A stretch of DNA of 64,000 nucleotides from contig CAJHIS010000001.1 of NCBI GenBank assembly GCA_905067555.1, forward strand, positions 8,611 through 72,610. Direction: 5' to 3'. Made by a program: the position numbers and the translations under genes. The notes below the pieces were generated by a model, which saw only the letters and a list, made by a program, of their open reading frames with translations, was not told the DNA's origin and did no database searches. Origin of the DNA: Candidatus Argoarchaeum ethanivorans. Its GTDB lineage: Archaea; Halobacteriota; Methanosarcinia; Methanosarcinales; EX4572-44. Below, one piece after another: positions 1,087-48,293 of the stretch (position 1 is the first letter of the stretch; each line of letters starts with the position of its first letter).

Positions 1087-2175
1087 TCATCGTTTTATCA
1101 TTCCCATTTCGCCAAGTCGTGTTGGCAGGTAAGTATCTGTCACATAGTCGAGTCCTTTTCCTGCAAATGCTTGCTGTTCTGCTTTTTTTCCAAGTTCGAT
1201 TTGAAGGTTAATCTGGTTTTTCCAGTAGTCAGTATCAAAACGTGGATCTGTTAGTTCGTTGTGCAGCGCTTTCATATCCTGATCAGTAAGTTTGTCTGTA
1301 GATAAATCATAGTCAATAATATCGCTTGGCTGTACTCCAAGGAATTTTGCTTTTGGTGCTGCCATGAACTCACTCAAGTGTGCGGTTTTGATTGCCCCGT
1401 AAGCTACGCTTGCATAAATGCGGTAGCTCCACGGGTCCGCATCTGTGAATACTGCAACCGGGATGTTGAGTTCTTCGTTTAATCGTTTGATTAATCTGCG
1501 GGTGCTTCTGGCTGGCTGCCCTTTTAAATGGATAAGAAGTGCGTGGTATTTTTCGTCGAAGCCGTTCTCGATTAATCGATCCTGCATGCCCCCGGTCTCG
1601 ATTGCGATGATGATTTGTGCATCGTGCTCGAGAAATTCGATGTTTTCAACGTTGTATGGTATTTGGTATCCTGCCTCTCCAACATCTTCCTGGCAGTGAA
1701 TGATCCGCTCGCCCCGTTTCGTGGTTTCCCTGATTCGCAGTGGCCCAAAGATGGTAGCACCATTTTCTTCCGGACGCACATGAAAATCTTCTCGTTGGAG
1801 TCCGGTTATGATTTCAAGGTCTTCTATGAGCCGATCACTTTCCGGCTGCTCCTTAAATTTAGCTATATCCCAGTTCTCGGATATGTAGTAAATTTCTCTT
1901 AAGGTTGAGCTTTTATTGTTACTCAGGTGATCGTTGATGAGAAGGTCACAGATGTGTGTTGTTTTTAATAGCTGGTATGCACCTTTGGTGGTCTTTGCAC
2001 TTCTTATGCTCCTACCGCCGCCATAGACCCACACATCATTCTCGCTTATTTCGATGTTGTTCTTCGTACGTGTCGGAAGCTGTAGATGCGGTATGCTGCC
2101 CTCGTCTATTTGTTCATAGATTATCCGGATTAGCTGTTTTAAGCTTGCTATTGACTGGATGTTTGTAACAATCAT
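1087..2175 (-). CDS. top6A: DNA topoisomerase VI subunit A (Spo11-like)
   Basis: The length is about 362 aa and it lies immediately downstream of top6B. The track ORF starts at 2250, but the region between 2176 and 2250 is an inserted hairpin element. The ATG at 2175 (MIVTNIQ...) is preceded by AGGTGAT and its context is duplicated at the top6B stop. Confidence 0.9.
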
Positions 2176-2266
2176 TATGGCATCACCTCTGTACAACTTC
2201 GTTGTGCAGACACATTCAACTCTCGATTGCGGAGCAATCGAGTTGCACAAAATTGGGTAACTATCA

Positions 2267-4126
2267 TTAGGGCATCACCATGACTTTTGTACCTGTAACA
2301 AGTTCTTTGTCTATTCCCTCTACAATTACAGGAGGTAATTTTTCAATCGCCTCACTTGGTATCGTTAAATCGTAAAATATTGCTCGCCCCTCCTGTGGTT
2401 TCAGATTAATCCCCCACCGGTAGTTGTACTCACCATCAGTCGTTATGATTTCAGGCTGCGGGCTTGGATTGTATATGGGATATGTCAAGGATTCATACAG
2501 CATGAACTTTTGTTTTGTCTCGGTGTTGTTGCGGATTTGTATAATCACATGCTGCACTTTTTCGCGCTGTTCAACCTGTCTTTTGATATGCACATTTCCC
2601 ATTATTTTGGCAACAACAGGTGTTATATCAGGTACAGGAAGTTCAAGTATCTCTGATGTTTTTGCTGCAATGCGCGGCAGTAGTTTATGGATTATTACTT
2701 CCTTTTCCCGTCTCTTGGAGAGTGCCTTTTGTTTCCCTATGTAAGCTAACAGCTTTCTTGCAAGCTCTTTTAGTGCCAGTTCGGTTTCACTTACGATCTC
2801 TGGCACATCAGCAATTGCCTCCTTTGATTCCGAGGTGAAGGGTATGTGTGTTGATGCTACGTGTACCAGTATGATAATTGGCCCAACTGGTAGGCTTCCT
2901 CCAGGCTGGTCGATGGAATACTGTCTCCACTTGATGTTTTCAATGGCATGAGTGATAGCACAGGCTCCCTGTTGGTACAACAACGGCACCCTGTTTGCAA
3001 ACCGCAGTATGTTTGTACGTTGATCTTTTCTAAGGCTTCCTCCATAAGCAATGCCTGCCTCAACAACAAAAGGATGGCCGCTGTGCACTGAAGCTGTGCG
3101 CGTAGTAGTAGCGATAAAATCTATGGTGTGCTCCTTTTCAAGTCCTTTATAAATAAGTTGTTCACCGATCGGTGAAAGGCAATCAGTAGACGGCGCCATA
3201 ATCTTCACATTTTTAAAAGCATTGATGAGCTTTTTTGCCCCGTTCAGATCGATTAGATGCGGATCAGTGTCCGGATCAAGACCCGCTTTGCTGCAAATTT
3301 CTTCTGCAGTGTAGAGACCAATCTTGGAAAGGGAGTGCCGAAGGAAAGCTGCAAGACGCTTTCGCTCTGTGTATCGCAGCATTTTCAACAGTGTTCCAAG
3401 TTCGATGCCGTTTGGATGTGGCAGCACTTCTTTTGCTGGTGCCGGCAACCTGTCGGTAGCACGCTCAAACCGAATTTCGTTTCCATCAGGCTCTATGAAT
3501 GTGATGCGTGCATGTGGATTGATGATTGCAGTATCTTTCAGGTATTCGTATACTGATTGTCGCCGTCCTTTGACATAGCTTGCTTCCATTTCAAGTTCGA
3601 TGCGAATGCCCTGCAGCCGATCCCACTCGATTTCCTCGTCTTTGAGTATTTGCGGCTCATTGGTTTTTGTGTTGATAATAAGTTCAAAATAGTGTGCAGG
3701 ATAATTTTTTCCAATCTTGGAAATGATACGAACCGGCTTTCCGGACGTGAGTTGTGAATACAGTACTGCTGCCGATATGCCAATTCCCTGCTGCCCGCGA
3801 CTCTGTTTTATGGCATAAAAACGTGAGCCGTACAACAGTTTTGCAAAAACGTTTGGAATCTGTTCTCGTGTAATGCCAGGCCCGTTATCTTCAACGATTG
3901 TTGTTATTGTTTCTTTAGTTGTGTTTTCTACAAAAACTATAATATCAGGAAGTATGTCCGCCTCTTCACAAGCATCAAGTGCATTATCCACTGCCTCCTT
4001 CACAGTAGTTATCAGGCACCGTGGGGCAGAATCAAAACCAAGTATCTGTCTGTTCTTTTCAAAGAATTCTGCAATGCTGATAGATTGCTGCTTCTTTGCA
4101 AGTTGTTCTGCCACAGGTGTTTTCAT
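2267..4126 (-). CDS. top6B: DNA topoisomerase VI subunit B (GHKL ATPase)
   Basis: 619 aa. It has a Bergerat-fold N-terminus (EAVDNALDA..., DNGPGI, GQQGIG) and is adjacent to top6A. Confidence 0.92.
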
Positions 4127-4231
4127 CAGATATTATTAATATGGAATGGTATATGTTACTTTGGATTCAAGAGCATTCCAACCGATATGTTTTTGAGATA
4201 TTATTTATATGGTAAGGGTGGTGATTGAATA

Positions 4232-4759
4232 GTGAGACATAAAACCATATTAATATTGTTAATCCTCTTTTCATCAGTTTTTGCACTTGGTTGTGTAGAT
4301 AATGAAACTGAAGACGTACCTGACGTTAAGATGCCGATTGATACTGCTTCAATAGATGACCTGATCCCAACAAAAGATCTGCCGATTGGCATTACCTATC
4401 TTGGGGTGCACGAAGTAGTTATTGAGAATGCAACAGAGTCCATCGAAGCCGTGTATAAAAACAGTAACAAAGACGATTTTTATGTGCGTGTTGCTAAAAC
4501 AGACAGCAAAGATTCTGCAAAGAAGTTAATTGAAGATTACAAGTCACAGTACAATGGCTATCGATATAATCCATTTGAAGAAGTAATGCTGAGTAATCAC
4601 AGTGCCACGCAGATAAAGGATTATACAATTCAACAGGGTAAAAACGAGTTCACCTACCTGTACATCTGGAATAATGAGAATTATGTGTTTATTGTTTCAA
4701 GCAACATATTAAATGACAACTCTCTGACCTTTGAGATTGCTCAAGCAGTCGGCTACTAA
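4232..4759 (+). CDS. secreted or lipoprotein-like hypothetical protein
   Basis: 175 aa. It has a signal peptide followed by a Cys (LILFSSVFALGC). No recognisable catalytic motif. Confidence 0.55.
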   Translation: MRHKTILILLILFSSVFALGCVDNETEDVPDVKMPIDTASIDDLIPTKDLPIGITYLGVHEVVIENATESIEAVYKNSNKDDFYVRVAKTDSKDSAKKLIEDYKSQYNGYRYNPFEEVMLSNHSATQIKDYTIQQGKNEFTYLYIWNNENYVFIVSSNILNDNSLTFEIAQAVGY

Positions 4760-4796
4760 AAGATTGGTAATTGTATAGGATATAAAAGGAGATAAA

Positions 4797-6440: not shown

Positions 6441-6498
6441 CTTTGTTCCAAGTTCCTTTTGTAACCACGAGACTCGTTATTTCTGCAAAGCAAAAGCT

Positions 6499-7743: not shown

Positions 7744-8188
7744 GTTTCAGCACCTCCGATGATTGGAGGAACTCAGCAATTTTGTATACAAAGTCTCTTG
7801 CGTCATCATCATTCGTTGGATAGGATAATTCAAGCATTGGTATTTTTTTTGCACGGATAAGGAAGTTTACAAGCTCATTGGTGCGTGCACATCCCATACA
7901 CCCGAAAGTTGCTTCCGGATCGCTGACAACGACTGCCGCATCTGCTTTTTCAAGTAGTGGCCCTATCAGTGCCATTCTGCCACGCACACCGGATGGAACC
8001 TCTACTGCTGCATATTTTAAACCTATTTTAGGGTCCTCCGGAGTGATGTTGAGCGGCGGCGAGTCGAGCCCTACACTGGTAACTTTTTTTCTAATCTCCT
8101 GTGGAATGGTAAGCGGCTCGTGACCGAATCGATCTACTAAATCAGCCAGAACGAGGCTGTTGGTTGGATATATCAATATTTTTGACAT
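7736..8188 (-). CDS. methanogenesis marker 5-like protein
   Basis: 150 aa with a [11 protein letters not shown] motif. It overlaps the downstream ATPase gene by 8 nt. The assignment is from memory of the family. Confidence 0.5.
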
Positions 8189-8207
8189 GTTCTATTACTC
8201 CTGATAT

Positions 8208-25292: not shown

Positions 25293-27422
25293 CTAAAATA
25301 GGTGCAGTTTCTTGATGTTTTCAACGCTCCGTATTTCTTCATCCGGGTTGGATGGTGTTGGTGTTTGAACATTTTTATGCTTTAGATTGAAATCTGCGAT
25401 AATCACTTCTTCTCGACCTTCCTTAACCTCGCACAATTTATATGTCAGGTCTCCCGTGTCTTTGCATCCACCATCCACCAATGAGCTGAAATAGTTGTTG
25501 TTCAACTGCCCGAAGATCGATGTCCCGCCGTAGAGCCCTGTATTTGCAATCAGGATATAAGATGGGGTTCTTTCAACATGACTGTGTGCCTCGTTCTGAA
25601 ATCGTTCGTTTGCAGGGTTGAAGGCTGGGCAGAAGATCATATCAATATCGGTTCCTCTGAAGTAGTGGGCTAAATCGTCAAAGTCCCTGCAGATCAGTAT
25701 TATGAACTTGCCAAACTGGGTCTCGTATCTGTATACTGTGTCTCCAGGTATCATTCTTTCTTCTAGTTTCATTACTCCATCTTCAAAAGTCGATGGTCTG
25801 ATCTTTTGCTGGTGTGGTATATCACGATCAGATTCCATTATCAGCGGGCAGATATTCTTCTTGTCTTTATAGAAACTTCCACCGATAATAATCATGTCAG
25901 GATATTTGCTCTTGATCTCACTTATCCACTCTTCGCAGAGGCAGAGTTCAGGTAAGCAGACGATGTTTGCACCATCGTTCCTGGCTATCTCAAGTACTGA
26001 AAATATTTTTGTTTTTACCTCGTCTTTCTTTTTAATGATGAATGGGAATGATTTTGTAAGTTCAAAAGAGATTTGGGCTACGGCAATCCTGACAATCTCT
26101 TGTTTTGTCTTTGAGATATGCACGGTCTGAATTTTAGGGATGTAGGTGTTTTCCTGCACGTACCCAAGAACTCTGACGATTGCTGCGCCCCGTTCTCCAG
26201 GTTCCATATCTGTTAGATTCTTGAGCTGTTCACATGCGTCTACTTTTTTATTAGTTGGAAGATATTCACACCAACCTCTTGCAAAACCTGCCGTGTCGTC
26301 CAGCGCTGTCATTAGCGCCAATATGTCGTTTATGGGCAGCAGTTCCTTTGCAGATCTGGCAGTTTCGCGTCCAAGTTTTTCAAGCGGCGTTCCTTGCGTC
26401 TTCCTGCATACCGCTCTTGCCTTCTCAGGAATCTCAGGTATTATCTCTTTGATCTGTTCATCGATTATCGGCAGCCCTCGATGTAAAACTTGTGCTGCAC
26501 CGGGCGTCCCTTCTGCCGCGTCACCGATCAGGTCTGCGGCGCGGTCACAGTATTGTCGGTAGGTGTTGAGATGATGCTGTATGGTATCCAGATTTGCTTC
26601 TTGCACTTTGTGAGCTTCTGTTAGTGCGTTTGCGAGATTTTCTACTGCTTTAACGAGTGTTTCTTTGTTTTTTGATCCTTCTGATGCATTTTTTGCTTCT
26701 GTTAAGTATTCTTGGACTTCTTTTTCTGTTTTCTGTTTCTCGAATGTTATTGCGTAGAATGATCTGTAGAATGGGAGGCAGAATTTGGATGGGTTGGAAT
26801 ATCCTATCGCTTCTTTTGATGATTCTTCGAAGAATGAAATGGCATTTTTCATCTCTTCCCTGAACTCCTCTTCACTCTGTGCCTTGGTTGCCTTGAATAC
26901 GGACGCTTTGCCAAGAGAATGATTTGAACTCAGCCGCACCCAAACATCTTTGTCTCGTGTTAGTTTAATCAGGTCTTTCCACGCTGTGTCTCTGTCGGGA
27001 ACGTGTTGGAAGACAGAACCGAGTGCTTCTGCTGCTATCCTTCGCACATCATCGTCTTTGCTATGTGTTAGTTGGTGCAGGTCTTTCCATGCTGCCTTTT
27101 TATCTGGAACATGTTGAAATACAGAACCAAGTGCATCTGCTGCCCTCCACCGCACATACCCATTTTCGTCTTGTATTAGTTGAATCAGATCTTTCCATAC
27201 TTCTTTTTTATCTGGAACGTGTTGGAAGGCAGAACCAAGTGCATCTGCTGCCCTCCACCGCACACCACGGTTTTTGTCCTGTGTTAGTTTGTGCAGGTCT
27301 TCCCATGCTTTTTCTCTGTCAGGTAAATCTGCAAAATCACTGCGTAGCTGCTCCACCGCCAATCGGCGTTCCTCAATCTCAAAGCTTACGGTTTTCCTGT
27401 GAATCTCAGCCTGATCGACCAT
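25293..27422 (-). CDS. HEAT-repeat / carbon-nitrogen hydrolase (nitrilase superfamily) fusion protein
   Basis: The N-terminus has 4 PBS-lyase-type HEAT repeats of 36 aa (VRWRAADALGS.FQHVPDKK..WKDL). The C-terminal about 270 aa has the E-K-C pattern (CLPELCL ... QQKIRPS ... ILICRDF). Confidence 0.7.
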   Translation of the reverse strand: MVDQAEIHRKTVSFEIEERRLAVEQLRSDFADLPDREKAWEDLHKLTQDKNRGVRWRAADALGSAFQHVPDKKEVWKDLIQLIQDENGYVRWRAADALGSVFQHVPDKKAAWKDLHQLTHSKDDDVRRIAAEALGSVFQHVPDRDTAWKDLIKLTRDKDVWVRLSSNHSLGKASVFKATKAQSEEEFREEMKNAISFFEESSKEAIGYSNPSKFCLPFYRSFYAITFEKQKTEKEVQEYLTEAKNASEGSKNKETLVKAVENLANALTEAHKVQEANLDTIQHHLNTYRQYCDRAADLIGDAAEGTPGAAQVLHRGLPIIDEQIKEIIPEIPEKARAVCRKTQGTPLEKLGRETARSAKELLPINDILALMTALDDTAGFARGWCEYLPTNKKVDACEQLKNLTDMEPGERGAAIVRVLGYVQENTYIPKIQTVHISKTKQEIVRIAVAQISFELTKSFPFIIKKKDEVKTKIFSVLEIARNDGANIVCLPELCLCEEWISEIKSKYPDMIIIGGSFYKDKKNICPLIMESDRDIPHQQKIRPSTFEDGVMKLEERMIPGDTVYRYETQFGKFIILICRDFDDLAHYFRGTDIDMIFCPAFNPANERFQNEAHSHVERTPSYILIANTGLYGGTSIFGQLNNNYFSSLVDGGCKDTGDLTYKLCEVKEGREEVIIADFNLKHKNVQTPTPSNPDEEIRSVENIKKLHLF

Positions 27423-28033: not shown

Positions 28034-29359
28034 ATGACTGATTACGCAGTCTTCTGGGGTTGTACCATCCAGGCACGTTTTCCATTCATGGAAAAATCAA
28101 CCACACTTGTTTTAGACCGAATAGGTGTTAGCCTCCATGAAATTGATGGCGTCACCTGCTGTCCCACAAAATTAATCAAGCTTGCAGACGAATTTACCTG
28201 GTACGTTACAGCAGCAAGAAACCTCTCTCTGGTAGAAAATATGGGCATGGATCTTGTAACACCGTGCAATGGATGTTACAGCACCTTAAAATCAGCGGCA
28301 TCAGAACTTAATATGAATGCTCAATTAAGAGATGAGGTAAATGAGATACTTGCAGAAGTGGGACTTGAATATAAAGGAACGATACACGTCAAACATCTCG
28401 TTGAAGTGTTGTATGACGATATAGGAATTGACAAAATCAAAAAATACGTAGTAAAACCGCTTGATGGCATGAACATTGCAGTTCACTACGGATGCCACAT
28501 GATCCGTCCGAGTTCTGCCATACATTTCGATAATCCGAATCATCCTACAAAGTTCGACCTGATAGTCGAAGCACTATCTGCCAATAGTATAGACTATTCA
28601 ACAAAGATGCTCTGCTGTGGAAACGACCTGAATAATACAGACGACTCATCGAATGCGATCGTTCTTGCTCGCCAGAAGATTCTTGAAGTTCAGGAGATGG
28701 CAGATGCCATGACAATGACATGCCCTGCCTGTTTTAGCCAGTTTGATTCCAAGCAATATCTCCTTGAAAAAAGCGGTGAGCGGTTACACATGCCGATACT
28801 ATGCCTTACAGAACTTATAGGGCTCGCTTTCGGATTTGAACCCTCTGAACTGGGTATGAACCTACACAGGGTCGAAACAGAATCATTCATCGAAAAATGG
28901 CATGAATGCTCAGAAAATCTCGAAAGTGCAAGGCAATATTTCGATCTGGCAGATCTGAGACGCTGTTATGAATGTGCTGCATGTGTTGACGACTGCCCGG
29001 TTACAAAACCAATTCCACAGTTTGAACCAAACCAGATCATCGGTAAGATTATACGCGGCAGATTAAATGAGGTTGTGGAATCACACGAGATCTGGTACTG
29101 CACAAACTGCTACACGTGCTACGAACTTTGCCCGCAGAAGTTTGGCATGATCAAGGTCTTTGACCGTCTAAAAAGTCTTGCGGGCGAGCGCGGTATAGCA
29201 CCGGATGGGTTCAAGGGCAGCCTCAAGATGTTCCTGGATACCGGGAAGTTGGGTGAGCCGACAACAGTACGCAAGAGATTGAAACTGTCTAAACCCCCAC
29301 AAAGTGGTGCTGATGAGCTAAAGAAATTGATTGACACAATCAAATCAAGAGGTAAATAA
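28034..29359 (+). CDS. heterodisulfide reductase-like protein: two CCG domains (HdrB-like) fused to a C-terminal 2x[4Fe-4S] (HdrC-like) domain
   Basis: CCG-type Cys motifs (CCPTK, CNGC; LCCGN, CPAC), then CYECAACVDDCP and CTNCYTCYELCP. Confidence 0.75.
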   Translation: MTDYAVFWGCTIQARFPFMEKSTTLVLDRIGVSLHEIDGVTCCPTKLIKLADEFTWYVTAARNLSLVENMGMDLVTPCNGCYSTLKSAASELNMNAQLRDEVNEILAEVGLEYKGTIHVKHLVEVLYDDIGIDKIKKYVVKPLDGMNIAVHYGCHMIRPSSAIHFDNPNHPTKFDLIVEALSANSIDYSTKMLCCGNDLNNTDDSSNAIVLARQKILEVQEMADAMTMTCPACFSQFDSKQYLLEKSGERLHMPILCLTELIGLAFGFEPSELGMNLHRVETESFIEKWHECSENLESARQYFDLADLRRCYECAACVDDCPVTKPIPQFEPNQIIGKIIRGRLNEVVESHEIWYCTNCYTCYELCPQKFGMIKVFDRLKSLAGERGIAPDGFKGSLKMFLDTGKLGEPTTVRKRLKLSKPPQSGADELKKLIDTIKSRGK

Positions 29360-29370
29360 ATAAAATAACG

Positions 29371-29494
29371 AATCAAGGGGTAAATAAGTAAGATGAAAGA
29401 TCATTGTTATCTGCACAACTTCGTTGTGCAGAAAGTAATTCTTGATTGCAAAGTAATCAAGGTATAGGTAAGTAAGATGAAAGATAATTGTTAT
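29371..29494. repeat. hairpin insertion (29411-29454) flanked by 40-bp direct duplication of the hdr-like/gltS junction
   Basis: The direct repeats at 29371-29410 and 29455-29494 are offset by exactly 84 nt, and each contains GTAAGATGAAAGAT.ATTGTTAT. The insert carries CTGCACAACTTCGTTGTGCAG and CTTGATTGCAAAGTAATCAAG. Confidence 0.85.
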
Positions 29495-30604
29495 ATTCCG
29501 TCCGGGTGTTCCATATCCGGCATGATTAATGAGTCAGGAAAAAGGTTTGATGGAAATAGTGTCATCAGATCGATCGCTCTTATGCACGATCGTGGAAATG
29601 GTCTTGGAGGCGGTTTTGCTGCTTATGGGATATATCCAAGACATGCTGAACAGTTTGCTTTTCACATGATGTTTGACCATATAGAAGCAAAGGAAGCATG
29701 TGAAGAATATTTTAAGGATAGATTTGACATTGTACTCGACGAAGAGATGCCAACCTGTTCTGGCGGAGCATTTGAGGAAGAGACTTCAGGAAGATATGGG
29801 GAATACGGGGGACATCCAATCACAAATCCTCCAATCCTGTGGCGGTATTTTATGGATGTACCGAAAAGCAAAACAAGTTTTGTTTCAGAGAATGAATATA
29901 TTGTCAAGAACGTTATGGAGGTTAACTCCAGAATAGACGGTGCTTTTGTTGCATCATCCGGCAAGAACATGGGGGCATTTAAAGGCGTGGGATACCCTGA
30001 AGATATTGGAGTATTCTATAAACTGGATGAGTACAAGGCATACATCTGGACTGCACACGGCAGGTTTCCGACAAACACACCTGGGTGGTGGGGAGGAGCG
30101 CATCCATTCTGCCTTCTTGATTGGTCAATTGTTCATAACGGGGAGATATCATCCTATGGAATCAACAAACGATACCTTGAACCTCACGGCTATAAGTTAG
30201 AACTTCGGACCGATACCGAGGTCATAGCATACCTGTTCGACCTGCTTGTTCGAAAGCATAAAATACCAATGGAGATGGCTATAAAAGCACTCGCACCCCC
30301 CTTCTGGAAAGACATTGACAGAATGCCAGAGCGTGAGCAGAGAATCGCAACTGCTATCAGGCAAGTCTATGGCGGGGCACTCCTGAATGGTCCGTTTAGT
30401 GTCATTCTTGGACATAGTCGCGGTATGATTGGGTTCAATGATCGCATCAAACTGAGACCAATGACCTGTGCAAGAGCTGATGATATGCTGTACATGGCAT
30501 CAGAGGAAGCAGCCATCAGAGAGATTGCACCTGAACTGGGTGAGGTCTGGAGTCCAAAAGCTGGAACAGCAGTGATTGGCAAATTAAGTGAAGAGGTGAT
30601 ATAA
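29477..30604 (+). CDS. archaeal glutamate synthase, glutamine amidotransferase (class II) subunit
   Basis: 375 aa with an Ntn-type amidotransferase N-terminus (...CSISGMINE), followed by the FMN and GXGXG subunit genes. Confidence 0.85.
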   Translation: MKDNCYIPSGCSISGMINESGKRFDGNSVIRSIALMHDRGNGLGGGFAAYGIYPRHAEQFAFHMMFDHIEAKEACEEYFKDRFDIVLDEEMPTCSGGAFEEETSGRYGEYGGHPITNPPILWRYFMDVPKSKTSFVSENEYIVKNVMEVNSRIDGAFVASSGKNMGAFKGVGYPEDIGVFYKLDEYKAYIWTAHGRFPTNTPGWWGGAHPFCLLDWSIVHNGEISSYGINKRYLEPHGYKLELRTDTEVIAYLFDLLVRKHKIPMEMAIKALAPPFWKDIDRMPEREQRIATAIRQVYGGALLNGPFSVILGHSRGMIGFNDRIKLRPMTCARADDMLYMASEEAAIREIAPELGEVWSPKAGTAVIGKLSEEVI

Positions 30605-30782
30605 ATGAGTTCTGAGATTTCACCAGACTCGATTGCTTCGCAGCTTGATTACTTCGTAATCAAGAGTTCTTTTCTGCACTCGATTGCTTCGCAGTCAAGA
30701 GCTATTTTCACACACAGCGTGTGTGGTTCTGCACAACGAAGTTGTGCAGGTGATATAAAATGATTTCTGAGATTCCACCAGA
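30594..30782. repeat. composite hairpin insertion (30628-30747) flanked by 34/35-bp direct duplication of the gltS subunit junction
   Basis: AGGTGATATAAATGAGTTCTGAGATTTCACCAGA (30594) versus AGGTGATATAAAATGATTTCTGAGATTCCACCAGA (30748). The insert contains CTTGATTACTTCGTAATCAAG, CACACACAGCGTGTGTG and CTGCACAACGAAGTTGTGCAG. Confidence 0.85.
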
Positions 30783-32271
30783 GTTCATCGTAAAGATTGA
30801 CTACGAGCAATGCAAGCGATGCAAGCGATGTGTCATGAACTGTAGTTTCGGATGCATGCAATTCAAGGACAGGGTAATACCTGATCACAAAAAATGTGTG
30901 GCATGTCAACGGTGCGTTACATTCTGTCCTGAATCTGCGATAACGATTACTAAGAATGAATTATCCTACAAGGAGAATGCAAATTGGACGCCAGAAATTC
31001 GGCAGAACATTTTAAAGCAGGCAGAAACCGGTGGCATGATCCTTTCAGGGATGGGAAACCCCAGAGCTTACCAGATACTCTGGGATCACCTGTTAATCGA
31101 TGCATGTCAGGTCACCAACCCATCCATCGACCCGCTCCGTGAACCAATGGAACTGAGGACTTTTATTGGTAGAAAGCCTGAACGTCTGGAGTTTTCAGCG
31201 GATGAAAATGGCGAGATAGAACTTGCAACTGAACTTGGACCCCAGATCAAACTGGATATTCCGGTCGTGTTTGCAGCAATGTCCTATGGTGCGATCAGTT
31301 TGAACGCTCACAAAGCACTTGTGATGGCTGCCAAACAGTCAGGTACGCTTATGAACACAGGCGAGGGAGGACTTCACAAAGACCTGTACTCTTATGCAGA
31401 CAATATCATCGTTCAGGTAGCATCAGGAAGGTTTGGCGTGCACAGTGAGTACCTGAATACGTGCGTAATGGTCGAAATCAAGATCGGACAGGGTGCAAAA
31501 CCAGGTATAGGTGGGCATCTGCCAGGTGAGAAGGTAGGAGAAGAAATATCAAAAACAAGGATGATTCCAGTCGGGACAGATGCTATCTCACCAGCACCGC
31601 ATCATGATATTTATTCAATCGAAGACCTTTCCCAGTTAATCTACGCAATCAAAGAAACTACTGATTACACAAAGCCGGTTTCTGTCAAGATTTCAGCAGT
31701 GCACAATGTTGCTGCGATTGCAAGTGGAATTGTGCGTGCTGGTGCGGATATTGTCACGATAGACGGATTCCGCGGCGGTACCGGGGCTGCACCCATGGTA
31801 ATCAGGGATAACGTGGGAATTCCAATCGAAGTTGCATTGGCAGCGGTTGACCAGAGGCTTCGCGATGAAGGCATCAGAAACAACGCTTCAATTCTCTGTG
31901 CAGGGGGGATTCGAACAAGCGCTGATATGGCGAAGGCAATTGCTCTTGGTGCAGATGCGGTTGTTATCGGGACTGCCGCTCTTGTAGCAATGGGTTGTCG
32001 TGTCTGCCAGAAGTGCTACACAGGAAACTGTGCGTGGGGAATTGCTACCCAGAAGCCAGAGCTTGTCAGGAGGCTGGACCCACTGGTTGCTTCAGAGCGG
32101 CTTTCGAATCTCTTGAGGGCATGGGACCTTGAACTAAAGGAGATTCTCGGCTCTCTCGGCGTGAACTCCATTGAATCACTGCGCGGCAGCCGTGAACGAC
32201 TTCGTGGCATAGGACTGGATGAAATGACACTTAAGATCCTTGGAGTCAAACCAGCTGGGGTTGGACAATGA
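30760..32271 (+). CDS. archaeal glutamate synthase, FMN/[Fe-S] catalytic subunit with N-terminal 2x[4Fe-4S]
   Basis: 503 aa. It has CKRCKRCVMNC and CVACQRCVTFCP, then a GltS FMN-domain body (GEGG, KIGQGAKPGIGGHLPG, GGTGAAP). Confidence 0.9.
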   Translation: MISEIPPEFIVKIDYEQCKRCKRCVMNCSFGCMQFKDRVIPDHKKCVACQRCVTFCPESAITITKNELSYKENANWTPEIRQNILKQAETGGMILSGMGNPRAYQILWDHLLIDACQVTNPSIDPLREPMELRTFIGRKPERLEFSADENGEIELATELGPQIKLDIPVVFAAMSYGAISLNAHKALVMAAKQSGTLMNTGEGGLHKDLYSYADNIIVQVASGRFGVHSEYLNTCVMVEIKIGQGAKPGIGGHLPGEKVGEEISKTRMIPVGTDAISPAPHHDIYSIEDLSQLIYAIKETTDYTKPVSVKISAVHNVAAIASGIVRAGADIVTIDGFRGGTGAAPMVIRDNVGIPIEVALAAVDQRLRDEGIRNNASILCAGGIRTSADMAKAIALGADAVVIGTAALVAMGCRVCQKCYTGNCAWGIATQKPELVRRLDPLVASERLSNLLRAWDLELKEILGSLGVNSIESLRGSRERLRGIGLDEMTLKILGVKPAGVGQ

Positions 32272-36374: not shown

Positions 36375-37334
36375 TCAGCCCTCATTCCAAAGCTCGTCTC
36401 GCAGTTCTTTTATGGTAGCTGTTCGCTCTGCAAAAGCATTGTGTCTATGAATACTTTCTTCGTTGATCTGTTTGATCGTTATAATGGTATCGTCTGGTAG
36501 TTGTTTGAATTCTTTCACTATTTTTTGAGCCATGGTACGCACACAATCTTCTACGAATTTTGGATTGCGGTGTGCCTGTTCAACAAGGGCAGCTTCATCC
36601 CTCCTTTTCAAGAATTCATATACCGTTGCGCTCATCGAATCTTCTATGATGTGTATGATCTTGTCAAGTGGCACATTAACCCCATCGTGCACTTCTATTG
36701 TTATCGTGCCGCGACCGCGCTGGTTGTGTGTTGCCATTGGAATCTTTTCCAAGATTCTTTCTATTATTTCTTTTGAGATTCCAAGTTTTTCCAGTTCGTT
36801 GATTGCTTTATCCCGCATGATCTCCTGGGCACAGGGACATGCGGTGATGCCAAGAACTTCTGCTCCAATCAGTTTTCGAACAATCGTTTTTTCGCCCCTG
36901 ATTGCTGTAGCTTCTGCAATCATGTCAACAATCTCATGGCATGTCACCTGATCGTGAGGAGTTTTTCTTTTTATCGCATACTCACTTTTCATTCGAACCT
37001 CTGCCCGATTCGCATATTCGTGTTGATCCAGTAATTTTCTTGCTACTGCTCCACAAAGTTCTTCCACTTCATACACCGGGCTTTCAACAGCTTCTTCTAT
37101 CACACCATCCACTGCCTCGAAGTTTCGTGAAAGATTCGCACCCTTTCGATCCAGTGGTAAATCAACAAAAATATCAAAGGTAGAAATGAGTATAATTGGG
37201 CGACTATTCTTTCGAGTTATCTCTACGAGTTTTTTAACATTTGTGACGCCTACTCGTGTTAGGTTTACAGGAATCTCTGGTTTATTGGCTTGTACATCTG
37301 GTAAAGACACAACAGGCAACTCCTCCGGGTTCAA
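36375..37334 (-). CDS. mptA: GTP cyclohydrolase MptA (FolE2/type IB family)
   Basis: 319 aa. It has the LPDVQ N-terminal motif and a family-typical body (CPCAQE, HNQRG). The only in-frame start upstream of LPDVQ appears to be a TTG. Confidence 0.8.
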
Positions 37335-37576
37335 CCTCTTTTACGTATGATAACTGTTTCGGTTCTAAATCTAAAATTTTTAACGTATAGGAAAGTATAT
37401 AACGCATTTGCTTATTTTGCACTTGATTGCTGCGTAATCAAGAGTTCATTGTTATTTTCTGCAAAGCGTAAGCTTTGCAGTGCTTGTACATCTGGTAAAG
37501 ACACAACAGGCAACTCCTCCGGGTTCAACCTCTTTTACGTATGATAACTGTTTCGGTTCTAAATCTAAAGTTTTTA
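37288..37576. repeat. hairpin insertion (37383-37481) flanked by about 95-bp near-identical direct duplication
   Basis: 37288-37382 and 37482-37576 are offset by 194 nt and differ at about 1-2 positions. The insert carries CTTGATTGCTGCGTAATCAAG and CTGCAAAGCGTAAGCTTTGCAG. The duplicated block contains the mptA 5' end plus upstream DNA. Confidence 0.9.
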
Positions 37577-41036: not shown

Positions 41037-41753
41037 ATGATAAAACAATGTATAACATATTTAGGAATTCATAATTTTATGTTAGATGTGCAGCAGGATC
41101 CTACTGAAATTCTTGTCAACATGGCAAAAAATGATGAAATAGATCCATGGCATATTGATATCGTAGAAGTTACTGATCGATTTTTAAAAAGAATTGAACA
41201 GCTTGAACTGCTGGATCTTAGGATATCCGGCAGAACACTTTTTTATGCTTCAGTGCTTTTGAAAATGAAGTCAAACACCTTAATTGAGCCAGACCTGCCA
41301 GAAGATGAAGATGATGATTTCTTCGATGGAGCAGAGTTCGCTGATGCAGCAGACTTCCCAGTTCCAACACCTCCAATGCGCCATAAATCAGTAAGGCCTG
41401 CCACACTGGATGAACTGATAGCAGAACTTAAAAAAGCTGAGGTGGTGGAGAAACGCAGACAGGGACGTGTACCTGACAAAAAAACAAATATAAAAAAAAT
41501 AGATACCGATGAGGTAATCGGTATAGCTCATGAAGAAAGTATTGAAAAAAAAGTAGCCCAGATCTACAAAAAACTGGACGAACTGTTCAAGACCGGGGGC
41601 AATGTCAACTTCAACGAGCTTTTATTACAAAGCGATGATGATAAAATAATGACTTTTATCGCATTGTTATTTCTTGCAGGAGAGAGAAAAATATGGCTTG
41701 AACAGCCAGAACTATTTGGAGAGCTTTGGATTTATAAGTGTGCAAAGGTGTAA
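41037..41753 (+). CDS. scpA: segregation and condensation protein A (kleisin)
   Basis: The N-terminal IDPWHIDIVEVTDRFLKRI and C-terminal winged-helix-like part are present, and it is followed by scpB. The true start may be the internal MLDVQQ (41079). Confidence 0.75.
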   Translation: MIKQCITYLGIHNFMLDVQQDPTEILVNMAKNDEIDPWHIDIVEVTDRFLKRIEQLELLDLRISGRTLFYASVLLKMKSNTLIEPDLPEDEDDDFFDGAEFADAADFPVPTPPMRHKSVRPATLDELIAELKKAEVVEKRRQGRVPDKKTNIKKIDTDEVIGIAHEESIEKKVAQIYKKLDELFKTGGNVNFNELLLQSDDDKIMTFIALLFLAGERKIWLEQPELFGELWIYKCAKV

Positions 41754-41799
41754 AGAACTGCAAACTATGTTTACAGAAAACAATCAGGTACAGGATATA

Positions 41800-41862
41800 G
41801 ACAAATAGGTACATGGTATAGATAAATAGGTACATGGTATAGATAAATAGGTACATGGTGTA
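41800..41862. repeat. 21-bp tandem repeat x3 (GA(T/C)AAATAGGTACATGGT(A/G)TA)
   Basis: Units at 41800, 41821 and 41842, in the intergenic region between scpA and scpB. Confidence 0.9.
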
Positions 41863-41967
41863 ACGAAATGCAGGATGAGAAGTTGGTTGAAGCCATCACA
41901 CGATATTTTCTGCACAACGAAGTTGTGCAGGTGCAACGAAATGCAGGATGAGAAACTGGTTGAAGCC
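41857..41967. repeat. hairpin insertion (41895-41929) flanked by 38-bp direct duplication of the scpB start region
   Basis: GGTGTAACGAAATGCAGGATGAGAAGTTGGTTGAAGCC (41857) versus GGTGCAACGAAATGCAGGATGAGAAACTGGTTGAAGCC (41930). The insert ends with CTGCACAACGAAGTTGTGCAG. Confidence 0.88.
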
Positions 41968-43044: not shown

Positions 43045-43081
43045 ACAATTATAATATCTTACCGATCATAGATCACAAAAT

Positions 43082-43936: not shown

Positions 43937-43989
43937 AAAATGTTCATTTTTCGCATTTTTCTCCAATTTTTGTCATGCTTTCTTTTTAC

Positions 43990-44619: not shown

Positions 44620-44636
44620 GGTCTATTCTCCAAAAA

Positions 44637-45893
44637 TCAGCAAGATTTCAATCTTATTTCGCGCGGGTCTGCAATCTCTCCTTTTATTGCGCTTGCAGCA
44701 GCAGTTTCCGGTGATGCGAGGTAGATCAGTCCGCCTTTCCCCATGCGTCCTTTGAAGTTGCGATTGGCTGTTGAGAGGCATACTTCCCCATCCCCTAGCA
44801 CACCCAGATGAGCGCCAAGACACGGCCCGCACCCGGGTGGTGCAATCATTGCCCCTGCTCTTACGAGTGCCTGGATATACCCCTTCCCCATAGCATCAAG
44901 AAGTGTCTGTCTTGAAGCCGGTATTACAATTGTGCGGACACAAAACTTATTGTTTTTCGTGATTTTTGCTGCTGTTTCAATGTCTTCCAACCTGCCGTTG
45001 GTGCATGTCCCGATGAACACCTGGTCAACAGGTGTACCAACCACCTCACTTACCGGGCAGACATTATCCACCTGGTGAGGACATGCAACCAGTGGCTCAA
45101 GATCTGAAACATCCATGTTATATTCGCTAATGTAGTCAGCATTCCTGTCAGCATGTACCGGGGTGTAGTTTTCCACTGCACACTTTTTTATGAATTTAAA
45201 GGTTTTCTTGTCAGGAGTTATGACGCTGTTTTTTGCCCCCATCTCAATAGCCATATTGCAGAGTGTCATTCTGCCATCCATATTGAGGTGTTCTATTGCT
45301 TCACCATAGTATTCGATTGCCTGATAGGTCGCACCGTCAGATCCTATTCTTCCAACTACCATGAGTGCCAGATCCTTAGCCGATGTTCCTGCTGGCAGTT
45401 TGCCATCGATTACGACTTTGATTGTTTTTGGAACTCTAAGCCATATTCTGCCAGTCGCAAAGATCTCTGCCATATCAGTTGCACCAACACCTGTTGCAAA
45501 CGCACCGAATGCACCGTAAGTGCAGGTGTGAGAATCCGCTCCAATGATAAGTTTCCCTGGAAGTGCAAACCCGCGTTCCGGTAGAACCTGATGACATACT
45601 CCTTCACCAACATCATAATAGTTCACGATACCCTGCTCTTTAATCCAGCTTCTAATATCATGCTGGAGGTTTGCTGCCGTCTCATTATTGGCGGGAGCGA
45701 GATGATCAAAAGGGATGATAATTTTCTCCGGGTCAAAAACCTTTGAAACATTCATTTCTTTTAATGCCTTTACAGCAAGCACGCTGGTTCCATCGTGTGC
45801 CATGGCAAAATCAACTCCTGCCTCAATAAAATCATCAGCAGATGCTTTTTCACCTGCTGCTCCGGATAGTATCTTCTCACTCACAGTTGGCAT
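44637..45893 (-). CDS. aconitase-family dehydratase large subunit (3-isopropylmalate / homoaconitate)
   Basis: 418 aa with GADSHT and Fe-S ligands ([15 protein letters not shown]). LeuC and HacA cannot be separated by eye. Confidence 0.85.
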
Positions 45894-45922
45894 GGTTTAA
45901 AACCTGAAGAATTTGATTTGTA

Positions 45923-45995
45923 TAGCCCGGACAGGATTCGAACCTGTGTCGCAAGGTCCAGGGCCTTGCATGATTGACCCCTACACTACCGGGCT
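45923..45995 (-). tRNA. tRNA-Gln (anticodon CUG)
   Basis: 73-nt cloverleaf: acceptor AGCCCGG/CCGGGCU with A1:U72, T-arm ACAGG-UUCGAAU-CCUGU, and anticodon arm CAAGG-CCCUGGA-CCUUG. No encoded CCA. Confidence 0.85.
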
Positions 45996-46122
45996 CCAAC
46001 AGACATTATCACATCCTTCCTATTAATTAAACTATTCGCATCTACGAGAACAGATCAATATACAAAGCAAAACCTTCTAAAGGGAAGTGGACTAAAAAGA
46101 AATACCATTAAAGAAGGTAAAG

Positions 46123-47265
46123 ATGAATGAAATTCCAGCCGACATAGATATAGATAAAATCGCAGAGTTGTTTCATACAACAAAACAGCGAGTAAGAGGC
46201 TTACTGAACAGGAGAACTCTACACAAAACACCAGATGGAAATTTAATCTTAGACAAAAGCATATCAGGTGTTGGAAGTGGAACCAATGTATTTTTAAAAA
46301 ACTATGAAGTAGTGCGTGGTTTTCCAAAAATCCAGAGGGCAATGATGTTACAATCTGCACTGGCTGCACACTTTAGCTGCAAGAGCGTTGCAGTGGAAGA
46401 AAAAATGAATGGCTACAACACAAGAGTAGCGTTTATTGACAATAAAATAATCGCACTCACAAGAGGAGGTCACACTTGCCCCTACACCACAGAAAAAGCA
46501 CAGACCTTGATACCTGAAAAAATATTTACTGATCACCCTGGAATTGTGTTGTGCGGTGAAATGGCAGGACCTGATAGTCCTTATGTTCCAAAAAACATCT
46601 ACAACGTTAAATCCCTCGAATTTTTTCTCTTTGACATAAGAGAGAAAAACACAGGAATACCGCTATCAGTGGCAGCCAAATACAATATTGCAGAGCAATA
46701 CAATATAACCTGCACGAAACTCTTTGGAATATATCCTATAGCTGAAGCATACAATAAAATCACCAGAATAATAAAAAATCTTGGAGCATGCGGGCGAGAA
46801 GGCGTAGTCATAAAAGACCCAGCGATGAAGCAACCACCACTTAAATACACCAGTTCACAGAGCAACTGCTCAGATCTACAACATGCCTTCACATACTACC
46901 ATGATTACGCAAAAAGTTTCTTCTACTCGCGAATTGCAAGAGAAGCTTTCCAGTCAGTGGAATGGAATGAAACTCCGGAAGAGATACAACATCGATGTAT
47001 TCAACTTGGGGGAAGCATCCTCCAGCCGATGATTGCAACGATCAAAAAAATACAGGGGGAAGAGAAAATTAGCGAAAATGTACAAATACTGGTAAAGAGC
47101 CTCCAGACCGCTGAGAAATTCAAGGAACATCTTCGCATACTTGGCATAGATGCCATATTCCACAAACCGGAAAAGATCAATAACGAATACCTGGTAAAAA
47201 TACAAAAAATCAACCAGCGAACCAACGACAAAACCGAATCCATTCTTACTGGAGATACCTGGTAA
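46123..47265 (+). CDS. ATP-dependent RNA ligase, archaeal Rnl3 type
   Basis: Nucleotidyltransferase motif I VEEKMNGYN. The upstream RGFPKIQR string is as in Pab1020/MthRnl-type ligases (recalled). Confidence 0.75.
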   Translation: MNEIPADIDIDKIAELFHTTKQRVRGLLNRRTLHKTPDGNLILDKSISGVGSGTNVFLKNYEVVRGFPKIQRAMMLQSALAAHFSCKSVAVEEKMNGYNTRVAFIDNKIIALTRGGHTCPYTTEKAQTLIPEKIFTDHPGIVLCGEMAGPDSPYVPKNIYNVKSLEFFLFDIREKNTGIPLSVAAKYNIAEQYNITCTKLFGIYPIAEAYNKITRIIKNLGACGREGVVIKDPAMKQPPLKYTSSQSNCSDLQHAFTYYHDYAKSFFYSRIAREAFQSVEWNETPEEIQHRCIQLGGSILQPMIATIKKIQGEEKISENVQILVKSLQTAEKFKEHLRILGIDAIFHKPEKINNEYLVKIQKINQRTNDKTESILTGDTW

Positions 47266-47314
47266 CCGATATTTTTATATACTAACCGTGCTACAGTGAC
47301 ACACTATATCACTG

Positions 47315-48121
47315 TTGGAGTTAAGTATGTCAGAAATTGGAAAAAATATTAGACTTGAGAGAATAATGGATCGAGAGAGCAGAAATATGGTAATCATCCC
47401 GATGGACCACGGTATTTCCATAGGTCCTGTTGCTGGTATTGTGAACCTGCCAGAGGCTGTTAACAAGGCAGCAGAAGGCGGCGCCAATGCTGTTCTCATG
47501 CAGAAAGGAATGGCAAAACATGGACATCGTGGGTATGGGCAGGACATAGGACTTATTATCCACATGAGTGCCTCAACAAGTCGTGCACCAGATCCTAATG
47601 ACAAAGTACAGGTGTGCACTGTCGAAGAAGCAATAAAACTCGGAGCAGATGCTGTTAGCGTTCATATTAACATTGGCTCTGAAACAGAATCCAAACAGCT
47701 TCGGAAACTCGGGATGGTCGCAGAAAGCTGTGATGCATGGGGAATGCCTTTAATTGCCATGATGTACCCTCGCGGGAAAAACGTCACAAACCAGAACGAT
47801 TCCGAACTCGTAGCACATGTTGCACGCGCCGGGGCAGAGCTTGGGGCAGACATTATCAAAACAAACTACACAGGCGACCCTGACAGCTTTAAAGACGTTG
47901 TTGCAGGATGCCCGGTTCCAGTGGTAATGGCTGGAGGACCAAAGGCAAACACTGACAGAGAGTTTCTTGAAATGGTGGCAGGTGCAATGAAAGGTGGTGC
48001 ACGCGGTGTCGCCATCGGGAGAAACGTGTTCCAGCATAAAAACCCAGCCGCAATGACCCGTGCTCTTACAAAAATAGTTCACAAAAGCACCACGGTAGAC
48101 AAAGCAATGGAGGAACTTTAA
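47315..48121 (+). CDS. class I aldolase family, ADH synthase (AroA')-like
   Basis: 268 aa DhnA/FbaB-type aldolase ([14 protein letters not shown]), directly followed by dehydroquinate synthase II. Confidence 0.75.
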
Positions 48122-48293
48122 GTGAAATACATCTGGATAAATTCAAACCCGTATCGCTTTGCGATGCGGAGATGCAAAGCAATGGAGGAACTTCATTGTG
48201 AAACACCTTTGGATAAATTCAAACCCGTATCGCTTTGCGATGCGGAAATACAAAGCAATGGAGGAACTTCATTGTGAAACACCTTTGGATAAA
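48100..48293. repeat. three copies of the aroA'/aroB' junction (about 42 bp) separated by two identical 33-bp hairpin inserts
   Basis: Junction copies at 48100-48141, 48175-48217 and 48251-48293. The inserts at 48142-48174 and 48218-48250 carry CCGTATCGC-TTT-GCGATGCGG. Confidence 0.9.

Follow-up and report, generated by a model that had tools for sequence, protein, structure and literature searches.

Hairpin-bearing palindromic repeats flanked by long target duplications at gene starts of Candidatus Argoarchaeum ethanivorans

Several housekeeping genes of the ethane-oxidising archaeon Candidatus Argoarchaeum ethanivorans carry at their start a short hairpin-bearing insert that lies between two direct copies of the surrounding sequence. 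These structures were analysed in a stretch of 64,000 nt, hereafter called the window (GenBank assembly GCA_905067555.1, contig CAJHIS010000001.1, positions 8,611 to 72,610). The affected junctions belong to archaeal housekeeping operons, namely those of topoisomerase VI subunits B and A, of an HdrD-like protein followed by three domains of a split glutamate synthase, of MptA, of ScpA and ScpB, and of an aldolase and 3-dehydroquinate synthase II. At six loci a duplicated target block (D) encloses an insert (I), and the D copies within a locus are 88-99% identical. A first-pass annotation of the same DNA had described this D-I-D arrangement, and both a reading of the loci and an independent repeat search confirmed it at all six (Table 1). 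The inserts are built from a few perfect hairpins, as had also been proposed, with stems of 8-10 bp and a folding that by far surpasses that of shuffled sequence (z -3 to -6). Hairpin A (CTGCACAAC-TTC/GAA-GTTGTGCAG, 21 nt) occurs five times in the window at ≤1 mismatch, against none expected; the earlier count of six was one too high, while the enrichment stands. B-type hairpins are found in six copies against 0.02 expected. All seven hairpin sites of the window are intergenic or located at a gene boundary.

An exact-match scan for hairpin A, with one genome per species, yielded at least 89 stretches. The census set of 720 kb comprised 89 loci and the window and represents the window strain, Eth-Arch1, GoM-Arc1-GOS (GOS) and GoM-Arc1-LC-WB58 (WB58). 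The window is 94-98% identical at the DNA level to Eth-Arch1 and GOS and ~92% identical to WB58, and its Top6A protein is identical to that of another A. ethanivorans metagenome-assembled genome. An assembly artefact was ruled out, as the same structures are present in independent assemblies and in several strains. A metagenome scan with the GltB-domain protein returned distant relatives only (≤70% identity), which served as a control set; the distant-relative control of the D-I-D census amounted to 0.99 Mb. Look-ups with GlnA returned mainly the same genome (L170, 100% identical) or short contigs that end before the loci.

The strain comparison shows that the duplication is derived and tied to the insert, because empty alleles carry a single D. 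Such alleles were found for loci 1, 2 and 4 and in L077, and they bear out the earlier proposal that a dispersed hairpin family inserts with duplication of its target. Locus 1 is filled in the window, Eth-Arch1, GOS and WB58, with a longer insert between identical D boundaries in WB58, and is empty in the ENA strain L187 (96-97.5% identical to the window). Since the more distant WB58 (93%) is filled, a precise loss is indicated for L187. Locus 2 is filled in the window; Eth-Arch1 (L050) has one D copy and no hairpin. Locus 4 is empty in WB58 (L184), and GOS and Eth-Arch1 share a separate event there (D 34, I 39, CTGCACAC-type hairpin), the boundaries of which are unlike those of the window event (D 95, I 99). 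A further clean pair of filled and empty alleles is formed by L038/L042 and L077 (D ~32, I ~34).

The same alleles show that the structures turn over fast by gain, loss, expansion and erosion. Later changes comprise precise loss of the insert, apparently by recombination between both D copies, as well as tandem amplification (D-I-D-I-D), nested insertions and erosion of the decoy copy, i.e. the D copy from which the gene does not start. Locus 3 is filled in the window and in Eth-Arch1 (L050) with the same D, and the two inserts differ, sharing only hairpin A beside the second D copy (D2); in L050, two units are adjacent with no D between them. At locus 5, WB58 lacks the hairpin A insert and has kept an older event with a complete 38-nt D copy. 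In the other three genomes the older D copy has lost 26 nt including the decoy ATG, and a second insert re-duplicated the same 38 nt. The 21-nt tandem repeat upstream of scpB grew from the tail of the older insert and is present in 1.5 copies in Eth-Arch1 and GOS; WB58 has a different 40-nt expansion in its place. Locus 6 contains one hairpin (H) in Eth-Arch1 (D-H-D) and two in the window and WB58.

Outside the gene starts, hairpin A is abundant, with at least 181 copies in the 720 kb. The bulk of the hairpin copies is located in mosaic intergenic arrays of related modules, the flanks of which are themselves repeats. Besides A, the modules include B (CTYGATTGC..GCAATCRAG), E (CTGCAAAGC..GCTTTGCAG), CCGCACAC..GTGTGCGG and CTGCATAC..GTATGCAG, joined by T-rich linkers such as AGAGTTATTT. 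The shared hairpin foot is CTGCA...TGCAG, with CCGCA or CTYGA in other module types. It is well supported that the inserts are copies, often partial, of this modular family of small palindromic repeats, which is similar to the bacterial REP and BIME sequences. An Rfam scan identified three tRNAs only, and the hairpins are outside any known RNA family. An additional P module has a conserved 23-mer (ACGTATAGGAAAGTATAAACGCA) with a purine-rich stretch and a TATA-like box. It was found in 31 copies at ≤4 mismatches (e.g. L071:2109, L076:3348, L025:1739, L060 (-)7650 and window 37383-37406), usually with TTTCTTGA or TTTTTTTA as left neighbor. It is followed 3' by a leader of ~30 nt (..CTCGTTCTCTTGCTACTGAAAT..) and then by hairpin modules ending in hairpin A and TTTCTTGA. 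The whole unit looks like a mobile promoter cassette; the 99-nt insert of locus 4 is one such unit, directed away from mptA.

Among the matches listed for hairpin A, all belong to the GoM-Arc1 clade: Ca. Argoarchaeum ethanivorans Eth-Arch1, GoM-Arc1-GOS, GoM-Arc1-LC-WB58 and a few small contigs binned as Desulfobacteraceae. No perfect hairpin with a stem of ≥8 bp was found in ~82 kb of contigs from relatives with an MptA of ~81% identity. Both results suggest that the family is confined to the cold-adapted Argoarchaeum cluster, which Hahn et al. (PMC7175092) defined within the GoM-Arc1 archaea. It was not seen in the Ethanoperedens-like contigs sampled.

Some of the records involved are misleading in their names or boundaries. 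The small contigs L038, L077 and L078 (RPGP01, labelled Desulfobacteraceae bacterium Eth-SRB1), in which the archaeal hairpins are present, share 96-98% identity with Argoarchaeum contigs and probably represent misbinned Argoarchaeum strain variants; one of them supplies an empty allele. WNEG01 loci (e.g. L080, L184 and L189) are titled Ca. Ethanoperedens thermophilum GoM-Arc1-LC-WB58. This public name is misleading, because GoM-Arc1-LC falls in the Argoarchaeum cluster according to Hahn et al. (PMC7175092) and the DNA is 92-93% identical to the window. The repeats also break short-read assemblies: L171 starts exactly at hairpin A (window 30728) and L188 starts inside the insert of locus 1.

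The association between hairpins and duplications is strong but not universal. A direct repeat scoring ≥30 spans 32% of the hairpin A copies, compared to 2.8% of random positions, i.e. a flanking direct repeat is ~11 times commoner than at random sites. Among high-copy repeat blocks, 39 of 387 (10%) have a direct repeat abutting both sides, compared to 25 of 2989 controls (0.8%). By the refuting condition that the first-pass annotation had itself set, a lack of flanking duplications at most copies, its claim therefore fails in the strong form. Structures of the D-I-D type (D ≥20, I ≥15, period ≤200) are found at a density of 226/Mb in Argoarchaeum loci and 11/Mb in the distant relatives (~20-fold), and those with a perfect hairpin in I at 68/Mb and 1/Mb, respectively.

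About 20 independent events could be delimited. D and I values were curated by hand, as indels break the automated boundaries (loci 2, 3 and 6; L014, L021 and L184). Most events have a D of 30-42 bp and an I of 33-44 bp. The curated pairs (D, I) are (38, 35) three times, (34, 38), (34, 39), (39, 34), (33, 34), (30, 35), (32, 42), (42, 33), (33, 43), (36, 41), (40, 44) and (95, 99). As outliers there are (23, 69), (33, 122), (20, 138), (26, 60), (46, 23) and a nested (16, 35), and several of these clearly took more than one step. D thus extends over 16-95 bp and has a clear mode near 36 bp, and the inserts are non-coding and 21-140 nt long. Duplications had been called long and variable (23-95 bp); the spread was overstated, 23 and 95 being extremes. 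In events with a unique D, the net gain in DNA clusters at 65-77 nt. A typical insert of ~35 nt consists of one hairpin and a tail of 11-18 nt. The foot of the hairpin lies between -5 and +4 nt from the D boundary in curated events and 0-1 nt from it at all four D-I-D loci carrying hairpin A. The earlier statement that this hairpin always abuts a duplication boundary thus applies to the D-I-D loci; the fifth copy of the window (58793) is part of an array without duplication. On the GAA-loop strand of hairpin A, the hairpin forms the right-hand end of the insert, with its foot a few nt from D2. The left-hand end is arbitrary and is sometimes located within the loop of the neighboring hairpin of the donor array. 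The inserts have neither terminal inverted repeats nor a fixed second end. By our reading, insert and target overlap at some junctions: by 7 nt at locus 2 (AATCAAG, which forms the right arm of hairpin B as well as the first 7 nt of D), 4 nt at L005:5804 (GCAG), 3 nt at L013 (TCT) and 2 nt at locus 3 (AG). At locus 4, the junction has a TTTTTA that is also found in the left flank usual for P modules.

As the first-pass annotation had stated, the duplication preserves the stop codon of the upstream gene as well as the ribosome-binding site and start codon of the downstream gene. In 11-12 of the 14 events with a unique D, the start codon of a long open reading frame (ORF) lies inside the working D, separated by 11-26 nt from the 5' end of this copy and by 10-27 nt from the 3' end. 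In nearly all cases, the working D includes the Shine-Dalgarno sequence and the start codon together with 3-9 codons. Landing on gene junctions does not hold as a targeting rule, however: most copies are located in intergenic arrays, a GTG follows hairpin A in just 13 of 176 copies, and the orientation relative to the next gene is mixed (50 co-oriented, 73 convergent). With these counts, targeting of GGTGAT by hairpin A was dropped, and so was the idea that the hairpin cassettes are always co-oriented 5' leaders. The gene-start pattern probably reflects survivorship and not targeting. With ~15 gene-start events against 181 copies of hairpin A, survivorship would suffice. In a compact operon, an insertion would be tolerated only within the first 10-27 nt of the downstream gene and only if the duplication includes the Shine-Dalgarno sequence together with the stop codon of the upstream gene; this latter gene would then end in the first D copy and the downstream gene would start in the second.

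At loci 1, 2, 3 and 5, a small ORF begins at the decoy start of the first D copy, reads across the insert and ends between -12 and +8 relative to the true start. A decoy ORF stopping at or near the true start could keep translation of the two genes coupled. Random stretches of 22-50 codons are stop-free 21-42% of the time. Since read-through by chance thus amounts to 0.2-0.4 per locus, selection on the decoy ORFs is unproven and the pattern is suggestive only.

Table 1 Coordinates of duplicated target blocks (D), inserts (I) and associated features in the window
Feature	Position	Strand	Description
Locus 1, overview	2165-2187/2257-2279		D 23 nt; I 69 nt
Locus 1, working D	2165-2187	(-)	GGTGAT Shine-Dalgarno, TAATG, start of topoisomerase VI subunit A (gene 1087-2175)
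Locus 1, insert	2188-2256	(+)	69 nt; hairpin A 2189-2209 (1 mismatch), B-type hairpin 2222-2242
Locus 1, decoy D	2257-2279	(-)	Stop of topoisomerase VI subunit B (gene 2267-4126) and decoy ATG
Locus 1, decoy ORF			30 codons; TAA 2 nt before true start
Locus 2, older repeat of junction	29343-29370	(+)	28 nt, AATCAAGAGGTAAATAA...AAAATAACG; also in Eth-Arch1; looks like the remnant of an earlier module insertion
Locus 2, overview	29371-29410/29455-29494		D 40 nt; I 44 nt
Locus 2, decoy D	29371-29410	(+)	Decoy ATG at 29393
Locus 2, insert	29411-29454	(+)	44 nt; hairpin A 29411-29431, hairpin B 29441-29461
Locus 2, working D	29455-29494	(+)	Start of glutamine amidotransferase-domain gene (29477-30604)
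Locus 2, decoy ORF			24 codons; stops 12 nt before true start
Locus 3, overview	30594-30627/30748-30782		D ~33 nt with one indel; I 122 nt
Locus 3, decoy D	30594-30627	(+)	Shine-Dalgarno, stop of gene 29477-30604, decoy ATG 30605
Locus 3, insert	30628-30749	(+)	122 nt; nested 16-nt direct repeat (30628-30643, 30677-30692) around B-type unit 30644-30664; hairpin CACACAC-AGC-GTGTGTG; hairpin A 30729-30749 abutting D2
Locus 3, working D	30750-30782	(+)	Start of glutamate synthase domain gene (30760-32271)
Locus 3, decoy ORF			52 codons; TGA overlaps true ATG
Locus 4, overview	37288-37382/37482-37576		D 95 nt, copies 99% identical; I 99 nt
Locus 4, working D	37288-37382	(-)	5' region and first codons of GTP cyclohydrolase gene mptA (36375-37313/37334)
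Locus 4, insert	37383-37481	(+)	99 nt; P module 37383-37406, hairpin B 37422-37442
Locus 4, hairpin E	37459-37480		Within insert; CTGCAAAGC-GTAA-GCTTTGCAG
Locus 4, decoy D	37482-37576	(-)	99% identical to working copy
Locus 5, older event	41747-41785	(+)	Eroded D remnant GGTGTAAAGAAC holding scpA stop codon
Locus 5, hairpin of older event, followed by its tail	41758-41776	(+)	CTGCAAAC-TAT-GTTTACAG
Tandem repeat upstream of scpB	41786-41859	(+)	21 nt, 3.5 copies; unit AGGTACATGGTATAGATAAAT
Locus 5, overview	41857-41894/41930-41967		D 38 nt; I 35 nt
Locus 5, decoy D	41857-41894	(+)	Decoy ATG 41868
Locus 5, insert	41895-41929	(+)	35 nt; 15-nt tail and hairpin A (41910-41930)
Locus 5, working D	41930-41967	(+)	scpB start, ATG 41941
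Locus 5, decoy ORF			27 codons; stops 8 nt past first base of true start
Locus 6, D-H-D-H-D array	48099-48293	(+)	Period 76, 2.6 copies; D ~42 nt, H 33 nt; aldolase stop (47315-48121) in first D, GTG start 48274 of 3-dehydroquinate synthase II in last D
Locus 6, hairpins	48149-48169, 48225-48245	(+)	CCGTATCGC-TTT-GCGATGCGG
Array without duplication	58757-58870	(+)	Divergent intergenic region; CTACATAC-type hairpin, hairpin A 58793-58813 (1 mismatch), hairpin B 58835-58855

The elements are small non-autonomous palindromic repeats with an unusual, unexplained insertion signature. With the bacterial REP, BIME and REPIN sequences, which are mobilised by the Y1 transposase RAYT, they share the properties of short, high-copy and lineage-specific palindromes that are mostly extragenic, form mosaic arrays and are in some cases found inside operons. 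In contrast to these, their host is an archaeon, their modules are mostly co-oriented instead of forming inverted pairs, and their foot is CTGCA...TGCAG and not the GTAG or CGTC tag that defines REPs at one end of the palindrome (PMC3733652). A target duplication of 16-95 bp on entry is not mentioned in the REP literature searched. MITEs (miniature inverted-repeat transposable elements) derived from DDE insertion sequences have terminal inverted repeats and short, fixed target duplications, whereas the ends of the inserts are mutually unrelated, one of them being arbitrary, and D spans 16-95 bp. From the IS200/IS605-derived PATEs they differ by the presence of a duplication and by having only a weak preference for A or C before the hairpin and no fixed tetra- or pentanucleotide. 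Long, variable target duplications are not unprecedented: IS1634 and IS1549 of the IS4-related group give direct repeats of 8-514 bp, variable in length and without a mechanistic model (PMC2266710). These two are the only known cases in the literature searched. They are elements of 1.5-2 kb from Mycoplasma and Mycobacterium with a DDE transposase and terminal inverted repeats, whereas the Argoarchaeum units have 21-140 nt, no gene, no inverted-repeat ends and a D mode of ~36 bp. That the element class is undescribed agrees with the literature searches, which found no description of these repeats in GoM-Arc1 archaea and none of hairpin repeats with long target duplications at gene starts.

Mycobacterial MIRUs, reportedly described by Supply et al. 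in 1997, are said to lie between the genes of operons and to hold small ORFs that meet the flanking stop and start codons, for which a role in coupling was proposed. The decoy ORFs (24-52 codons) are similar in that they end near the true start. MIRUs are reportedly tandem minisatellites of 46-101 bp with no reported dispersed hairpin core or duplicated gene start, whereas the Argoarchaeum elements have both. Tandem repeats of Borgs, whose host Methanoperedens is the sister lineage, have a comparable flanking partial-repeat geometry around a centre of unexplained origin, and the D-I-D-I-D of locus 6 has exactly this shape. Borg repeats are, in contrast, perfect, A-rich, unique to their locus and thought to be of local origin; here, the centre is a recognisable dispersed hairpin and the D copies share 88-99% identity. 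In GOS, a nearly perfect tandem repeat of 72 nt (L022:4992-5371; 5.3 copies, 99% identical) recalls the intergenic repeats of Borgs. Tandem duplication with a templated junction insert, occasional microhomology and association with palindromes is also a feature of fork stalling and template switching (FoSTeS), microhomology-mediated break-induced replication (MMBIR) and rad27/FEN1 flap duplications. Such mutations occur sporadically and their inserts are unrelated. In the present case, one repeat family is reused and ~10% of the window genes carry an event.

Taken together, the structures can be read as the work of a REP/BIME-like family that spreads by copying with a long target duplication, that is seen at gene starts through survivorship and that is joined to its target by template switching. 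We regard this joint reading as about evenly balanced between true and false, and the join as its least certain part. Filled and empty alleles show that, when a unit enters unique DNA, a target stretch of usually 30-42 bp comes to lie on both sides of it. In a replicative copy-choice at the scale of Okazaki fragments, the nascent strand would leave the target, copy a short stretch of a hairpin array and detach once the completed palindrome folds. It would then resume on the original template tens of nt behind its exit, sometimes via a microhomology of 2-7 nt. Template switching is favored because the inserts are arbitrary windows of donor arrays with break points at the feet or centres of palindromes, because some junctions have microhomology, and because D is variable and the lineage is rich in young tandem repeats. 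The lack of terminal inverted repeats and of a fixed second end, and the presence of IS200-type transposases with unrelated end hairpins, were counted as further pointers to it. Several points weigh against this reading. About half of the junctions lack microhomology, the enrichment of which stems from a hand-curated set of ~13 events. The loci entered the sample for carrying hairpin A, and the sample is therefore biased; the direction of gain versus loss was inferred from few strains. D begins exactly at the 5' edge of GGTGAT in ~5 of 11 events, above the prediction of a uniform model; an overlap (AG/G) with the terminal ...GCAG of the hairpin or a preference for certain sites may lie behind this. 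Within the sampled 720 kb, the elements could be assigned to no enzyme. Template switching alone does not explain the clustering of both D and I near 35 nt. Nor does it account for two insertions at scpB whose 38-bp D coincides to within 1 nt on either side, or for the different inserts between identical D boundaries at loci 1 and 3. These features fit better with an integrase that measures its target by a ruler. Such an enzyme, a Cas1-Cas2, casposase-like or other integrase, would insert a stiff hairpin-ended DNA of ~35 bp by two staggered strand transfers ~36 bp apart, and gap repair would duplicate the target as it duplicates the CRISPR repeat around a spacer. This main rival is rather unlikely in our estimate, and the evidence does not decide between it and template switching. 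The likeness to spacer integration lies in the repeat-insert-repeat order with both parts of ~35 bp: D (30-42), I (33-44) and period (65-77) match repeat-plus-spacer sizes, even the largest event has a D close to I (95, 99), and one insert end is exactly defined. The 38-bp block at scpB was used for two successive inserts, like a growing array, and formation of new arrays by off-target integration ('neo-CRISPR' formation by Cas1-Cas2) is mentioned in a passage of PMC6698737 citing Nivala et al. 2018. In contrast to spacers taken from diverse foreign DNA, however, all inserts are derived from the hairpin family and none from other DNA. D varies from 16 to 95 bp with outliers of 16, 20, 23, 46 and 95 bp and pairs such as (23, 69), (46, 23) and (20, 138), some junctions overlap by 2-7 nt, and the two adjacent units at locus 3 of L050 have no D between them. 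A search of the sampled 720 kb for CRISPR arrays found none, neither a leader nor Cas1 is in evidence, and the known type III-H system of A. ethanivorans is without an adaptation module (PMC12669027).

The remaining explanations are less probable. Single-strand transposition by a Y1 transposase of the IS200/IS605 type or similar to RAYT, as for REP/REPIN and PATE, with the duplication arising secondarily from replication across the new hairpin, appears very unlikely. It would account for hairpins with a conserved foot that are strand-polar, with a constant orientation of the loop relative to the defined end, and by our reading 13 of 14 events have A or C as the last D base in front of the hairpin. 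Transposase genes are indeed present: a test for a RAYT-like arrangement found at least two copies of a solo IS200-type tnpA 190-250 nt from A-B modules, one intact (L185) and one frameshifted and ~190 nt from its A-B module (L053), and L026 and L059 carry tnpA and tnpB. Closeness to tnpA means little, however, given the abundance of the hairpin modules. Resident IS200/IS605 copies have a right-end hairpin of their own (CCCTGTACTTGAGTACGGGG), unlike the module hairpins, and clustering of ORFs for a multi-copy transposase beside hairpins in the sampled loci identified ordinary IS200/IS605 only, with unrelated ends. Furthermore, transposition of this type gives no target duplication, the insert ends are arbitrary without a second cleavage site and the target tetranucleotide is inconsistent. 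A route via RNA is still harder to credit. A processed hairpin RNA, its 3' end trimmed to the foot of the hairpin, would be ligated to an mRNA fragment protected by a ribosome. Reverse transcription with jumps from one template end to the next would follow, and the product would recombine into the genome. With 30-42 nt from about -12/-26 to +10/+27 around the start, D indeed matches the footprint of an initiating ribosome in size and position; a 3'-exonuclease would be expected to stop at the hairpin foot, where the boundary lies, and the loops inside which inserts begin are plausible RNase cleavage sites. By our count, the hairpin is in sense orientation in 8 of 10 gene-start events, and P modules look like promoters able to transcribe the arrays. 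Selection alone predicts the same window around the start codon, though, and D is not a start region at locus 4 (95 bp), in nested events, in L013 or in L071; a motif search found no reverse-transcriptase-like ORF in the sampled 720 kb. It is equally improbable that the structures are purely local tandem duplications or slippage products, as for Borg repeats, with pre-existing hairpins and nothing inserted from elsewhere. Variation between D-H-D and D-H-D-H-D at locus 6, the many hairpin arrays with tandem duplications in whole-number copy counts and the variable copy number of the 21-nt repeat at 41786 agree with slippage. Empty alleles with one D copy and no hairpin, and the same 21-nt hairpin at hundreds of unrelated sites, speak against it as the origin, so that slippage accounts for later expansion only.

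Palindromic repeats are known as intergenic passengers; here, they enter the coding starts of essential genes, including those of topoisomerase VI, glutamate synthase, ScpB, MptA and the aromatic amino-acid pathway. The genes entered survive owing to the duplication of their ribosome-binding site and start codon and of the neighbor's stop codon. About one tenth of the window genes are scarred, and the scars differ among strains that are 93-98% identical; the insertions are therefore a major and fast source of change in 5' regions. The changes comprise decoy starts, leader ORFs, new hairpins before ribosome-binding sites and sometimes a promoter-like module, and the structures mislead gene callers on start codons. 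The mode of ~36 bp duplicated and ~35 nt inserted is unexplained by known transposition chemistry. Its solution could bear on the foreign-centred tandem repeats of Borgs in the sister lineage and on the start of repeat-spacer arrays. We consider it quite unlikely, if somewhat less so than Y1 transposition, that both lengths are set by a dedicated ruler machine acting on hairpin-ended nucleic acid, be it an integrase of the Cas1/casposase kind or a copier of the primase or reverse-transcriptase type. If this were true, the gene-start structures would be natural repeat-spacer-repeat units caught at birth, and a living example of the nucleation of CRISPR-like or Borg-like arrays from ordinary sequence. 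Ethane-oxidising enrichment cultures exist, which makes the system experimentally approachable.

Conventional transposition also operates in the lineage. Eth-Arch1 has a 176-nt insertion with a classical 9-bp target duplication (CTCATTTTG) at L037:3529-3704, corresponding to ~43997 of the window, which like GOS is without it; this is an ordinary MITE-like element. The intact solo tnpA of Eth-Arch1 (L185:6950-7309) lies next to glnA, where the window has the glutamate synthase operon, indicating a rearrangement, and the frameshifted IS200/IS605 copy is located at ~4400-4807 of L053 (-). A further rearrangement between strains concerns the segment 17130-18870 of the window, which is inverted in Eth-Arch1 (L050:4408-6140) and located a few kb from the glutamate synthase operon there, compared to ~10 kb in the window. 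Two coding tandem repeats of the window are unrelated to the hairpins, one of 141 nt in 3.5 copies (167-665) and one of 108 nt in 3.1 copies (26970-27309), the latter in a 709-aa HEAT-repeat protein. Finally, a 920-aa ORF at 51004-53766 combines a protein-kinase domain with an ORC/Cdc6-like domain.

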